From contig CAVXKA010000001.1 in assembly GCA_963762255.1 (NCBI GenBank), positions 544,001 to 608,000 of the forward strand: DNA of 64,000 nucleotides. Direction: 5' to 3'. A program made the position numbers and the translations under genes. Position 1 is the first letter of the stretch. Each line of letters begins with the position of its first letter. A model generated the notes under the pieces. It saw only the letters and a list, made by a program, of their open reading frames with translations, was not told the DNA's origin and ran no database searches. This stretch comes from Candidatus Eiseniibacteriota bacterium. GTDB taxonomy: Bacteria; Eisenbacteria; RBG-16-71-46; JABDJR01. Positions 56,701-64,000 of this stretch are shown here, one piece after another.

Positions 56701-58749
56701 ATGGCTGAACTCATACCGTACCCATTCCCCGCGCTCATCCGTCGCATGCTCCGCGAACTTCAGAGCAACGAGGCGATCTTCGACCTTCCGGCGTCTCGAT
56801 TCGCCACCGGCACCGGCGGTCTCGATCTCTCCGTGCACTTCCACGGACACATCGCCTCCAGTCCGCTCGGCCCCGCAGCGGGGCCCCACACGCAGATGGC
56901 GCAGAACCTCGTACTGTCGTGGCTCGGCGGGTCCCGCATCTTCGAGCTCAAGACCGTGCAGATCCTCGACGAACTCAAGATCCCGCGCCCGTGCATCGAC
57001 ATGCAGACCATCGGCTTCAATGCGGAGTGGTCGCAGGAGCTGCGGCTCGAGGAGTCGCTCGACGAGTACGTGAAGGGGGCGCTGCTCATCGCGATGCTCA
57101 CGCATGGCGCGGAGGGCGCACCGGCGCAGTGGCGCGATGTCCTGGCTCGTGTGCGGCCCGAGCCCGGTTTCGAGCATACGATCTTCGACTTGAGCGTGGG
57201 TTACGACCTGAAGGGCATCCGAAGCGACCGCGTGCAGACCTTCGTGCGCGGGATGATGAACGCACGGGCGACCATCGAGCGGTTCCGCGCGGAGGTCCCC
57301 GCAGAGTTCGCCTGGCTGCGCGACGTACCGGTTCCCGAGCGCCTGTCCGATACCGTCACCCTGAGCACCTTTCACGGCTGCCCCCCCGAGGAGATCGAGA
57401 GCATCATCGACTACCTCATGCGCGAAGTCGGGCTCAACTGCGTGATCAAGTTCAACCCGACGCTTCTGGGGCCGCAGGAACTGCGTCGTCTCCTGCACGA
57501 CGTCCTGGGCTATGGCGACATCCGCGTTCCCGACGCCGCGTTCGTCCGCGACACCAAGTGGGAGCAGGCGGTGGCGATGATGGAGCGACTCGGGCGCACC
57601 GCGTCCGAACTGGGTCTTTCGCTCGGCGCCAAGTTCTCGAACACGCTCATCGTCGAGAACACGCGCGGGTTCCTGCCGGCCAGCGAGAAGGAGGTCTATC
57701 TCTCGGGGGCGCCGCTCCACGTGCTGGCGATGAACCTGGTGCGCCGGTTTCGCCGCCACTTCGGGGACCGCTTCCCGATCTCGTTCGCGGCGGGCATCGA
57801 TCGCACGAACTTCGCGGACGCGGCTTCGCTGGGGCTCGTCCCCATCACCGTGTGCAGCGATCTCCTCCAACCGCAGGGCTACGGGAGGCTGCACGGCTAC
57901 TACAAGGAGCTGTCGCGGCGCATGGGAGAGGTCGGCGCGACGACTCTCGACGAGTGGGTGCTGCGCGCGCATGGGGCGGAGGCGGCGGGCAAGACGACTC
58001 CGGCGGAAGCGCGGCTCCACAACACCGAGCGCTACGTTGAAGCGGCCACCGCCCACGCGCGTTACTCCCAGAAGGAGAACGCCAAGAAGCCGAAGAAGAT
58101 CGGCAGCATGCTCAAGCTCTTCGACTGCGTGTCCTGCGACAAGTGCGTGCCGGTCTGTCCCAACGACGCCAACTTCACGTTCACGCCGGCGGCCAGTCTC
58201 TGCCGATCGTGAAAGCGGTGCGGACCGATACGGGTTGGGCGTGGCGAGAGGACGGCGTGATCCCGATCACGCAGAAGCACCAGATCGCCAACTTCGCCGA
58301 CTTCTGCAACGAGTGCGGCAACTGCGACGTCTTCTGCCCCGAGGACGGCGGGCCCTACGTGTTGAAGCCGCGCTTCTTTGGGAGCGAGGAGACGTGGCAC
58401 CGGTTCGCCGACCACGACGGGTACTTCGTGGAGCGTCGCGCCGGCAGGCGATCGCGTGCTGGGCCGCATCGAAGGGCGCGAGTACTTGCTCGAAGTCGCG
58501 GGCGGACGCCACGCGTTCAGCGGTGACGGGTTCTCGGTGGAGTTCACCGAAACGGATCCGGCGGGCACGCTGACGATCAGCAAGGCGGCGGACGGCTGCG
58601 CGGAGATCGATCTCACCCCGTGCTACATCCTGGACGTAATGCGTTGCGGCGTGTTGGACGGCGCCGAGGCGAACTACGTCAACGCGCTCGCGGTGTCACG
58701 GCATCGTGATCGCGTCCCTACCGTAGACCCCGGCGGCAGGGTGAGGTGA
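56701..58749 (+). CDS. YgfK-like Fe-S flavoprotein, short form; frameshifts near 58195 and 58440
   Basis: GPAAGPHTQMAQN, ELKTVQ, RPCID, TLSTFHGCPPEEIE, KFNPTLLG; CVSCDKCVPVCPN and CNECGNCDVFCP ferredoxin motifs. Confidence 0.8.
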
Positions 58750-58844
58750 GTTTCGAGTGGGCACAATCGTCACCCGTGGGCTGTCGTAGCTTCCACGTCA
58801 GTCCGGGCGGGTCTATATGTGTTTGAAATCAATGGGTTTCGGGG
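58695..58844. repeat. 150-bp direct repeat, copy 1
   Basis: Aligns without gaps to 60767-60916; 15 mismatches by manual count. Confidence 0.95.
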
Positions 58845-58875
58845 GCCGGGACGTTCAAACCCGCCTGCGCGAGCG

Positions 58876-59622
58876 TCAATCCCAGAGTTGCTTCAGTCTT
58901 CCCCATGTCGTGCCTTCCACCGGCGTCGCGCGTTGCACGGAAGCACGTCCGTCATTTGTATCGAAGGCGATGACCACTCGATCGTCGGCCTGCGTATTCT
59001 CGAAGCTGAAGTTGTCCCCGATAAGCATGTTGTAGTGCGGGCCGAAGGACCAGTCCCAGCTCCCGACGGATCGGAACTTGTACTCGACCGTACCGACGTC
59101 GGCAAGATTCATTTGAGCGCTCCAGACGCCGTCTTGCATCGTGGCCACGATCGGCAACGTCCAGGAACCAAGCTCGGGCGCACTTCCCATGAGCTCCAGG
59201 CTCGTCCCGACCGGTAATCCATGGTCGGTCATGATCGCCCCGGATTCCGGCTGCCAACCAGAACGGGGGTTTGCATCGAGCCGAAAGAAGACGGCCTCCC
59301 CGGCAGATACCGTGACAAGCCGGGCGTTCTGAAGCACGTATTCGGGATTGTGTGGCCACAACTGCGACCAGTCCGCGTTAGCGATCTTGAATTCATGGAG
59401 TCCAGGCGGCTGATCCGAGGTGATCGTCGCCGCATAAATGCCGTCTCCCCCTACTCCATCCCCATGCACGCCGTCATCATAGAGCCGGTTACCTGCGTCA
59501 TAGCCCCAGGTCGCGCCGGACCCCGCGTAATAGGAACCGCGCGCATAGTAAGGTTGAGCGACTGCCGACTGGGCCATGAGGCAACACACCGCCAAGAACA
59601 CCACGACCCCGATCCGTGTCAT
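58876..59622 (-). CDS. secreted protein with a DDG-rich motif and CBM20-like domain; C-terminal TWG tail
   Basis: GAGGAGG RBS; signal peptide; LYDDGVHGDGVGGDGIY; GSAPELGSW..GVWS..VEYKF; ends TPVEGTTWGRLKQLWD. Confidence 0.78.
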   Translation of the reverse strand: MTRIGVVVFLAVCCLMAQSAVAQPYYARGSYYAGSGATWGYDAGNRLYDDGVHGDGVGGDGIYAATITSDQPPGLHEFKIANADWSQLWPHNPEYVLQNARLVTVSAGEAVFFRLDANPRSGWQPESGAIMTDHGLPVGTSLELMGSAPELGSWTLPIVATMQDGVWSAQMNLADVGTVEYKFRSVGSWDWSFGPHYNMLIGDNFSFENTQADDRVVIAFDTNDGRASVQRATPVEGTTWGRLKQLWD

Positions 59623-62650: not shown

Positions 62651-63522
62651 GCCACATTCCTGTCATCGCGAGAGGGGATCGTGCGTACACGGGATTCTCT
62701 GCGTGAATCGAGAAGAAGATCCAATCTGTTCAGGAGCTCCTCCCGTCCCTGCGGAAATCTCGCGTGAAGAAAGTCCCATTCTACCTGAAGCAGTCCTGGC
62801 ACGACATTCTCTCGCAGCCGACAACAATCGGCATCGGGGACGACCAGCTGTGGAGTGTCTTCTAGAATCCGGACGAGACGTACTGCCAGGACGGCCAACT
62901 CGACGGGTGGCATCTCGTTCCATCGGGGCCAGTTGATTCCGGGGTCACGTTGTTCGCGTCTTTGCAGTACACCAAACGGATCGAGGACACACCCGGTCCC
63001 CAAATGAACCGCGAGCGCATTGATTCGTAGGTCAAAGTAACGAAGTGCTCCCGAAACCGATCGAAATCCCTTGTGGAACGTGGAGGGCTCAGAAATGTCT
63101 ATGTAGCCATCTTCGTAATGATAGCAACGTTGCTGGTGTCGGTTCAGTTCGAATGGCAAACCAAGAGCATCCAGAGCTTTGAATGCCCGGACATCTCCGT
63201 TCGGTACCATGACATCTATGTCGCCAGAATCTCCGAGTTGAAACAATGCTCTGCGGTGGGTACCGCCGACCACATAGGCACGTCCATTTGTAGCGTGAGT
63301 GATGGCGCGAATGACCTCGCGGGTCCTGTGACGCTCTTGTAGCCGCCTCATGAGTTCGCGATACAAGACCGCATGCGGTTCGTCAGGCTGACGCGCATTG
63401 CGCGTTGGCCGCGTGATCGTCCCAACCATTCCTGTGGGCGTCAATCGCAACCAAGAGGGCGGCCGCCACGCACGGACGCCGAGCAGATCACCGGCCGATA
63501 GAGCCATCGAGTGTTTCTTCAT
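62647..63522 (-). CDS. class II (CCA-adding/poly(A) polymerase head-like) nucleotidyltransferase, divergent
   Basis: AYVVGGTHR..GDIDVMV, ID, FDLRINALA (cf. RDFTINAL), LDPFG; stop overlaps the dGTPase start; start codon uncertain. Confidence 0.72.
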   Translation of the reverse strand: MKKHSMALSAGDLLGVRAWRPPSWLRLTPTGMVGTITRPTRNARQPDEPHAVLYRELMRRLQERHRTREVIRAITHATNGRAYVVGGTHRRALFQLGDSGDIDVMVPNGDVRAFKALDALGLPFELNRHQQRCYHYEDGYIDISEPSTFHKGFRSVSGALRYFDLRINALAVHLGTGCVLDPFGVLQRREQRDPGINWPRWNEMPPVELAVLAVRLVRILEDTPQLVVPDADCCRLRENVVPGLLQVEWDFLHARFPQGREELLNRLDLLLDSRRESRVRTIPSRDDRNVA

Positions 63523-63951
63523 GCCAGCAACACCATTAGTGGTCTTGTCATTTTAAGACGGCTTGTCACTCATGAGTATACCCCACACAGGCTACCGAGA
63601 TGTACTAGCGCAGGGCAATGTAATTCGGACCAGCCCGAGTGAGCGGACCGTAGACGGACCGGTCGCTGTCACTGGGTGGCCATTACCGCACGCTACCCTT
63701 TGATTGTAGCGGTCCGACACTTGCTTCTCGATTCCTACTTGGCTGTGCTGCTCTGTACTTGGCGCCAGGAATCTGGTCCTCCGGCGCCATTACCATTGAA
63801 ACGTGCCGGGTCATCCGGAGATCTCCGCGATGACTTCCCCGGCGGTCCATGTGGAAGTTCACCGCCGTAGGCTTGGCTCCCAGCTTCGGGGGTCGGCTCC
63901 CCTTGAACCCGTGCCGCCCCGGCTCCCCAATGGGGTCTGGAGGTTCAAGTT

Positions 63952-64000
63952 ATGCCCTACCTATCGTCCCCGACCCTGACGAAAGCCGAACAGGAAGCCC
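63952..64000 (+). CDS. 5' end of a gene, possibly a tyrosine recombinase/integrase
   Basis: GGAGG RBS, then MPYLSSPTLTKAEQEA; the LT..EQ opening resembles the start of a catalytic-domain-only tyrosine recombinase; only 16 codons visible. Confidence 0.4.
   Translation, partial: MPYLSSPTLTKAEQEA

Follow-up and report, generated by a model that had tools for sequence, protein, structure and literature searches.

Tandem accretion of ICEs (integrative and conjugative elements), IMEs (integrative and mobilizable elements) and CIMEs (cis-mobilizable elements), including the CIMEs of the ICESt1-type elements of streptococci, has been reviewed (PMC5704250). That review describes related elements that abut at one attB and are separated by a repeated att sequence, with one member that lacks a recombinase and keeps both ends, and with the whole composite bounded by the target repeat. 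A study of the ssrA-specific islands of Dehalococcoides describes tandem pile-up at a conserved structured small-RNA gene (PMC3146451). These are the closest described behaviors to those of the locus reported here, which lies in a 64,000-nucleotide (nt) stretch, the window, of a Candidatus Eiseniibacteriota genome (GenBank assembly GCA_963762255.1, 4.14 Mb in three contigs; contig CAVXKA010000001.1, hereafter C1, positions 544,001 to 608,000). Near the right edge of the window, two direct repeats of about 150 nt, R1 and R2, set off blocks of cargo genes that precede the start of a tyrosine recombinase gene. We think it probable that R1 and R2 are homologous left-end (attL-type) junctions of two related integrative elements lying in tandem at one site behind a host gene, and they apparently belong to an undescribed island family run by an unusually small recombinase.

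The locus departs from its closest counterparts in several respects. Unlike ICE, IME and CIME composites, the composite described here has no conjugation or mobilization genes, its recombinase is 194 amino acids (aa) long and consists of the catalytic domain only, and its shared end is a 190-nt composite, element E, in which a small-RNA core copy is combined with a lox-like site. Set against the Dehalococcoides islands (PMC3146451), the RNA gene that would be targeted here has a putative sigma-54-like promoter and is not tmRNA, the target in the window is an intergenic 18-mer, and the recombinase is from another family.

Results

Three target repeats and a native flank

From 5' to 3', the locus consists of a plus-strand host gene, R1, three minus-strand open reading frames (ORFs), R2, a minus-strand dGTP triphosphohydrolase (dGTPase) gene with a 291-aa ORF on the same strand, and a plus-strand ATG at 63952. 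This is the layout, with all cargo on the minus strand, that a preliminary description of the window had given. The conserved 3' part of the host gene (58378-58694, plus strand) belongs to NTP-transferase, 4Fe-4S and dehydrogenase-like ORFs at 55624-58749. Homology of the host gene to its relatives ends at about 58693, where a DNA match (56700-58693) to G001, a 75% complete genome of the same genus as the source, also stops. The host ORF at 58378-58749 runs on into a read-through tail that contains the first 55 nt of R1, and a comparison of protein ends puts the native end in relatives near 58700.

At this point begins the first of three copies of an 18-nt repeat with an internal palindrome, GTCACGGCAYCGTGATCG. 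The first copy, GTCACGGCATCGTGATCG (58695-58712, plus strand; palindrome TCACGG-CA-CCGTGA), is the junction between host DNA and element 1, and the second, GTCACGGCACCGTGATCG (60767-60784, plus strand), is the junction between element 1 and element 2. The third copy lies outside the window at C1:636,323, 33.6 kb downstream, and runs into native flank, that is, the sequence that follows the orthologous host gene in G001. In G001 itself the host gene is followed by a repeat-like 18-mer and then by sequence as from C1:636,341; the contig ends 160 nt later, so that no more than the junction itself is visible. For two further genera, the conserved gene that comes next maps to C1:643,346. From the three repeats and the native flank it follows that 33.6 kb was inserted in two parts: element 1, 2072 bp at 58695-60766, and element 2, 31.5 kb from 60767 to C1:636,322, which includes a copy of E, the dGTPase block and recombinase genes into which further insertions have in turn gone. 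The locus has two of the features by which tandem accretion is recognized: direct target repeats at both ends and between the members, and an uninterrupted target in G001. We take the R1-R2 block to be more probably one small non-autonomous island of a tandem pair than a cassette.

A repeat scan of the window found a single long two-copy family (58695-58859 and 60767-60931, spacing 2072), and a base-by-base count over 150 nt of R1 and R2 gave 135 identities, 15 mismatches and no gaps (BLAST E-value 2.7e-53 within the 4.1-Mb genome). The gapless identity of about 90% noted in the preliminary description is thus borne out, and the repeat is real, but its proposed 150-bp extent is not that of the unit. 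BLAST of R2 with its flanks shows that homology of other copies goes 96 nt past the end of R2; the real unit therefore reaches about 61009, and R1 is a truncated copy. Each repeat is made up of the 18-nt target repeat, a 38-nt spacer and the start of the roughly 190-nt composite element E. The first 56 nt (module L56) are found at R1 and R2 only and lie outside E. They include the spacer, whose first copy (58713-58750, plus strand; common to R1 and R2 only) has a hairpin CCCTACCG...CGGCAGGG and whose second copy, from the repeat alignment, is at 60785-60822 (plus strand). In R1, E is present as positions 1-94 only (58751-58844, plus strand), with a site like the small-RNA core at 58751-58780 and a sequence resembling a binding site of integration host factor (IHF), AATCAATGGGTTT, at 58827-58839, and it is cut off after GGGTTTCGGGG. 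In R2, E is complete (60823-61009, plus strand), with the core-like site at 60823-60852, the IHF-like site at 60899-60911, a lox-like module, and a C-run at 61002-61008. An IHF-like site in each repeat had been noted, and both are present.

Junction variants in related populations

Contigs of related strains from soil metagenomes, 88-99% identical and of low depth, carry variants of these junctions; parts of the stretch that they leave uncovered do not count as evidence. One related contig (runs X1 and X18) keeps the right end of element 1, its last 33 nt (60734-60766, plus strand), beside the target repeat and native flank without element 2, with different DNA leftward; its loose ends lie before 60734 and behind 60784. 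Among the other related contigs, one diverges after 58775 and others differ after 61009 and after 61050. Two start at 60841, and in X18 the letters preceding this position are those of the other site type. The contig ends at 58775 and 60841 overlap in GTCACCC, which might, tentatively, be a 7-bp exchange region.

These variants, together with the differences between R1 and R2, bear on an account in which no site-specific enzyme is involved and the repeats reflect in-situ segmental duplication or Campbell-type homologous recombination, with RecA acting on the roughly 150 bp of homology in a circle or sister copy. A homology of 150 bp at 90% identity is long enough for homologous recombination, and the mismatches between R1 and R2 are evenly spread, with no visible switch point. 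However, the third repeat is just 18-19 nt long and abuts native flank, and related populations have an element-1-type right end placed directly on the repeat and native flank. In addition, R1 and R2 differ at a 5-6-nt patch (58808-58813) where R1 has the variant of E copy E8 and R2 that of copies E4 and E7. Because the two repeats bear different family variants, they point to two lineages or two arrivals rather than to a fresh duplication, and we regard the RecA route as quite improbable.

Element E is a composite end confined to islands

A BLASTN search for the repeat, as had been proposed, returned further copies (eight in all, with four pieces besides): the source genome holds seven near-full copies of E, the R1 copy, and four right-end pieces. 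All of them sit in six island loci and are not scattered over the 4.1 Mb. Among 40 genomes of relatives, two copies are present in the same-genus genome, one weak match in another genus of the family, and none in the other 38. The left arm of E is TTTCGAGTGGGCACAATCG followed by TCACCCGTGGG. The middle stretch contains the IHF-like AATCAATGGGTTT, identical in 8/8 copies of the source genome and in one of the two copies of the same-genus genome. In the right module, of which there are ten strong copies, two inverted arms, each of 12-13 bp, flank a spacer of 8 nt, and a C-run comes next. In R2 the inverted arm lies at 60956-60968, the spacer at 60969-60976, and the direct arm at 60977-60989 (plus strand), and the arms match at 9/13 positions; the match is perfect (12/12) at C1:463,06x. 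In all ten strong copies of the right module, variable DNA begins exactly at the right end of E. Copies E3 and E5 have two element-side arms joined in an attP-like order. Module X (61010-61050, plus strand), a short conserved stretch after E in R2, recurs behind a recombinase-fragment break at C1:608,232 and behind an E piece at C1:633,658.

Cre/loxP, FLP/FRT and Xer/dif are simple-site tyrosine recombinases in which an N-terminal core-binding domain clamps the DNA. The right module of E resembles their sites in its two inverted arms of 12-13 bp and its asymmetric 8-bp spacer. In contrast to these enzymes, the small recombinases described below lack a core-binding domain, and the lox-like site is a putative one.

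The inverted arms of E also raise the question of whether it is a miniature inverted-repeat transposable element (MITE) or a repetitive extragenic palindrome (REP)-like non-autonomous element that spreads by itself, its proximity to cargo being incidental. E is about 190 nt long, occurs in multiple copies, and shows inverted terminal-like arms of 17-19 nt (its left arm and the inverted arm in the right module). Against this, E lies on one side of the recombinase gene and on one strand throughout, target-site duplications were not seen, conserved sequence runs on beyond the inverted arm, and every copy is in one of the six island loci. We set MITE or REP membership aside on these last two grounds and hold self-spreading to be highly unlikely. 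The preliminary description had allowed that the repeat might prove to be a dispersed element beside a gene other than a recombinase and without a link to variable cargo; the repeat is indeed dispersed, but always in islands of the E family, and that combination is therefore not what the locus shows.

Alternatively, E might encode a structured non-coding RNA, such as a guide for the recombinase or its regulator. Part of E derives from a real small-RNA gene, and the hairpins that had been noted in R1 and R2 do exist, but they fold only modestly better than shuffled sequences (z -1.95 and -2.74 on the plus strand, -1.22 and -2.27 on the minus strand). The right half of E folds worse than shuffles (z +1.2 and +1.4), no promoter was recognized by eye, and mismatches in the long-range arms are uncompensated in our reading of the copy alignment. 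A consensus fold of nine E copies has a covariation term of -0.02 with compensatory change in 1/35 pairs, a measure of low power since the copies are close. A search with the Rfam 15 covariance models, as had been suggested, gave no match at E-values up to 1 in 56000-64000, and the repeats are thus not a known RNA. Because covariation is lacking among the nine copies, we read the inverted arms as protein sites and not as RNA helices, and we give the RNA account very little credence. A tRNA or tmRNA as the target was also considered; it was rejected because ARAGORN found neither in the window or in 11 loci and Rfam searches of the window and of the small-RNA locus returned nothing relevant.

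A small-RNA gene split by an insertion

The left arm of E forms the invariant center of a small-RNA gene at C1:462.9 kb. The gene is intact in four relatives (L085:831-943, L086:885-997, L087:908-1020 on the minus strand, and L088:363-475), where its fold shows compensatory changes in 15/37 pairs among only four sequences and ends in a T-run. Upstream we read a possible sigma-54-like -24/-12 motif. In the source genome, parts of the gene are found at C1:462,775-462,965 and C1:491,440-491,520: the 5' stem strand is at 462.9 kb, and its exact complement (with one G-T pair) and the T-run are at 491.5 kb, directly behind a second site module. As the two stem halves are 28.5 kb apart, 28.5 kb was inserted into the RNA gene, with E4 as the left junction. 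The core copy in E derives from the conserved core of this gene, which probably serves the E family as a natural attB.

E is linked to a small tyrosine recombinase

In the source genome, E, cargo and the recombinase gene always follow one another in this order, with E and the recombinase on one strand. The gap between E and the recombinase is 2.9 kb at R2, 4.2 kb at E4, 3.9 kb at E5, and 1.1 kb at E8-E7. Six of the eight full, near-full or R1 copies are in arrays with a same-strand recombinase start within 4.3 kb, and E3 and E6 have no recombinase gene downstream. A profile of E run over 79 recombinase loci gave six matches in five loci, all in Eisenbacteria, and 6/6 precede the recombinase gene, 0.29-9.6 kb upstream on its own strand. 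As a separate observation, genome G004 has a 100-nt direct repeat, 91% identical (L073:6764-6863 and 13283-13382), that brackets cargo and a mini-recombinase gene. Situated immediately to the right of an E-like element, this repeat takes in the start of a minus-strand ORF and is possibly the att repeat of that element.

The preliminary description had suggested that the gene at 63952 might be a recombinase, and extending the contig shows that it is one. Its upstream region (63897-63951, plus strand; TTGAAC ... GGAGG) is conserved and has a sharp left edge that nine copies have in common. The gene starts at 63952 (63952-64000 in the window, plus strand), encodes 84-85 residues of a tyrosine recombinase as far as C1:608,206, breaks at the end of a 58-nt segment and continues as unrelated sequence. 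This copy retains only R40 and K71 of the catalytic residues. The source genome contains seven paralogues, of which two are intact at 194 aa (C1:467,341 and C1:1,408,757) and carry R-K-H-R-H-Y, two are full length and frameshifted, and three are 5' fragments. They account for seven of its 13 PF00589 matches; one other match is in locus A, and the same scan found no further tyrosine recombinase in loci B, C and D.

PF00589 covers the whole 194 aa of the intact recombinases (1.8e-19 and 1.3e-23), and 18 family members without exception have R40, K71, H142, R145, H168 and Y177. In alignments with XerA, XerD and IntI4, the protein matches their C-terminal catalytic domains alone (IntI4 residues 103-308), and therefore has no core-binding domain. 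Its nearest solved relatives are XerA and XerD; it scores far below the XerC and XerD cut-offs. The family is large: out of 2763 candidates, 2507 database proteins match at E-values up to 0.001. Among the best 120 of these 2507, a length of exactly 194 aa is found in 106, and the full range is 166-241 aa. The 79 loci, which came from an alignment query (a single-protein query gave 148 pattern matches and no confirmed relative), are in metagenome-assembled genomes of Eisenbacteria, Acidobacteriota, Gemmatimonadota, Verrucomicrobiia, Nitrospirales, Chloroflexi and others. Viral contigs contained four confirmed relatives, two of them close and both of those at contig ends; the family is not mainly on recognized phages. 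Terminase large and small subunits, ParB and a large serine recombinase are neighbors in only 10-14 of 78 loci each. In the portions covered of the openly accessible literature on catalytic-domain-only, self-targeting, accreting or soil-phylum tyrosine recombinases, we found neither a description of this family nor a bacterial counterpart of the suicidal integrases.

Gene capture as an alternative

The preliminary description took the locus for an integron-like or end-bypass gene-capture element. As in integrons, a tyrosine recombinase lies beside variable cargo with repeated sites, and the cargo between E and the recombinase is transcribed away from the recombinase gene. In other respects the two differ. 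The small recombinase lacks the N-terminal half and reaches 47 bits with TIGR02249 (cut-off 265) and 22.1 bits with NF011946 (cut-off 435), the integron-integrase models. Neither attC end (RYYYAAC or GTTRRRY) is present on either strand of 58660-58900 or 60730-61080, an absence that had already been remarked on. The blocks have two or three genes each where integrons have one promoterless ORF per site, two repeats bound five genes, and the E repeats are conserved in sequence and not only in structure. The view of R1 and R2 as recombination-site or element-end DNA tied to a recombinase and to variable cargo is supported. Their assignment as integron-type sites is not, and a cassette is the less probable reading of the R1-R2 block.

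A platform that works like an integron without being one needs to be weighed separately. The recombinase gene itself may be a landing pad for foreign DNA. All three 5' fragments in the source genome end inside a single 58-nt segment, at codons 67-86. Between paralogues this segment is 95-100% identical and its flanks 73-85%, and two solitary copies of it are also present. Every fragment comes with a promoter region of its own, the left edge of which is sharp. The source genome has no C-terminal-only partner, and elsewhere C-terminal fragments start at residues 36-94. More than one recombinase-like piece was found in 23/79 loci. Moreover, 14 of the 79 loci, from several phyla (L095, L096, L098, L100, L102, L111, L119, L120, L124, L128, L135, L138, L146 and L147, with the recombinase gene at about 10001 in most), contain 19 intervals of 0-2.9 kb that lie downstream of a full gene and are bounded by same-strand fragments of its 3' tail. 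An ORF of at least 50 aa is present in 17/19 intervals, most with one gene of varied function, and seven of these 17 have Pfam matches (serpin, TonB receptor, trypsin-like, HSDR_N, Lcl_C, DUF4823 and 8xMP).

Under a capture model, the recombinase would insert and excise small cassettes at the lox-like end of E, at the 58-nt gene segment and at the 3' tail, and the R1-R2 and dGTPase blocks would be such cassettes. The exact start of variable DNA at the right end of E (10/10 strong right-module copies) would fit, as would the E-to-recombinase distance of 0.29-6 kb with different cargo, the 5' fragments with their own promoter that precede a full copy at two loci of the source genome, and the tail-bounded intervals with their diverse Pfam families. 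On the other hand, the window has only two copies of E and no site after each gene, its blocks contain two or three genes, ORF orientation in the tail-bounded intervals is mixed, and cassettes are unnecessary to explain three 18-nt repeats and a native flank. Since the fragment break points are not at one fixed base and differ between genomes, we do not take capture as the principal explanation, and for the blocks in the window we consider it unlikely. It is somewhat less doubtful, while still tentative, that the 194-aa recombinase and E together form a bacterial gene-capture platform unrelated to integrons in Eisenbacteria, Acidobacteriota, Gemmatimonadota, Verrucomicrobiota and Nitrospirota, in which cassettes would enter at the lox-like site of E, the 58-nt mid-gene segment and the 3' tail, each piece bringing a replacement gene end. 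Such a platform would be self-targeting, and so a relative in principle of the 'suicidal' integrases of archaea.

Those SSV-type integrases are known only from archaea, according to a 2021 review (PMC8371274), and the account given there resembles ours in that 5' and 3' fragments of a recombinase gene lie beside foreign DNA and a stretch inside the gene acts as the junction. They differ from what we see (PMC8371274): the small recombinase belongs to PF00589 and not to PF16795, the source genome has no matching C-terminal fragment at the other end of a block, and the 3' tail repeats leave the gene whole.

Cargo and other features of the region

Element 1 carries three minus-strand genes. The first (58876-59622, 248 aa) has a signal-peptide-like N-terminus, a choice-of-anchor-X domain and a weak CBM_20 match; the second (59706-59960, 84 aa) has a hydrophobic N-terminus and no family match; and the third (59971-60624, 217 aa), which starts at ATG 60624 behind GGAGG, has a signal-peptide-like N-terminus and no family match. 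The tails of the 217-aa ORF (...WGVVKQQFGK, 59971-59997) and the 248-aa ORF (...WGRLKQLWD, 58876-58905) are alike, and an orphan reading, ...NLKQQFVK-stop, lies between element 1 genes (59660-59690); these are possibly a C-terminal sorting tag and a gene remnant. One related contig omits 59691-60626. The 54 nt that span the start and leader of this 217-aa ORF (60630-60683) have further copies at C1:621,376-621,429 (92.6%) and C1:842,879-842,932 (83%), and could be a paralogous leader or another small repeat.

In element 2, the dGTPase gene (61079-62650, minus strand) encodes a dGTP triphosphohydrolase with a match to defense-type dGTPases (PADLOC dGTPase, 3.2e-69; NCBIfam dGTPase, 410.5 bits against a cut-off of 405). 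The 291-aa ORF beside it (62647-63522, minus strand) had been labeled a nucleotidyltransferase. Its translation contains a GG...GDSGDID motif that by our own reading may be nucleotidyltransferase-like; it has no match in Pfam, PADLOC, NCBIfam or PDB sequences, and the label finds no backing there.

Just beyond the window, the block that interrupts the recombinase fragment (L031:1308-6017, equivalent to C1:608,308-613,017) encodes a CapP-like M78 peptidase (PADLOC 1.1e-28), a weak HEPN protein, and a CapH-like helix-turn-helix protein fused or adjacent to a split Ser/Thr kinase (PD-T4-6 or mad6-like). It looks like a defense module with its own regulator pair. Several island genes are split into two ORFs each, among them the kinase (L031:2223-3814), an aminotransferase (14509-15704), a methylase (about 7697-9433) and two recombinase copies, and the island DNA has long G and C runs, for example at 59691-59703 of the window. 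The splits may reflect real pseudogenization or homopolymer errors of assembly. Elsewhere in the window, 8711-9538 and 12081-12813 hold two families of periodic direct repeats of 141-171 nt, in six and seven copies, which are probably coding repeats of large repeat proteins unrelated to R1 and R2.

Discussion

If R1 and R2 are the left ends of two accreted islands, as we favor, then elements of the E family would integrate by tyrosine recombination at short sites, and each left junction would consist of 18 nt in common with the target, a spacer of 38 nt and the proximal arm of a recombination region, E. The left end of an element would bear E, with cargo on the opposite strand between E and the recombinase gene, and the IHF-like site may have a part in the reaction. 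We infer that a second element entered the repeat flanking a resident one, which would give the order host-R1-cargo-R2-cargo. The agent that makes and resolves these junctions would be the 194-aa catalytic-domain-only recombinase, of which two intact copies exist elsewhere in the genome. Element 1 has no recombinase and so could move only in trans; it would rely on a copy elsewhere in the manner of a CIME.

Several observations weigh against this explanation. The composite island has no intact recombinase, containing instead two 5' fragments and one full-length frameshifted copy, and a recombinase without a core-binding domain is not known to work alone. No constant partner gene emerged from clustering of conserved neighbors in 78 recombinase loci. 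The 18-nt repeat in the window differs from the site at which the small-RNA gene is split, and the two may be used by different enzymes. The right end of element 2 has no recognizable site module, and at loci B, D and E an exact-word search turned up no convincing flanking repeats with a length of at least 12 nt. As for the split itself, the matching stem halves are its only proof. Synteny with relatives is lost on the right side of the small-RNA gene: the flank of G001 maps to C1:391.6 kb, that of G006 falls on contig 3, and those of G007 and G003 have no match. The junction variants come from single low-depth contigs at 88-99% identity, and no sequencing run contained half or more of the words of the stretch, the best share being 0.10.

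The proposed tandem islands at the end of one host gene, and the insertion in a small-RNA gene, have implications beyond this locus. A recombinase of fewer than 200 residues that acts on short defined sites would interest genome engineers, and the recurrence of fragments of its own gene around cassettes leads one to ask if self-targeting integrases occur in archaea alone. If the tandem-island explanation is true, a very common and unstudied mini-recombinase of soil bacteria would gain a role and candidate DNA sites, as an enzyme that moves defense and surface-protein genes, builds islands by accretion and targets a conserved small-RNA gene.

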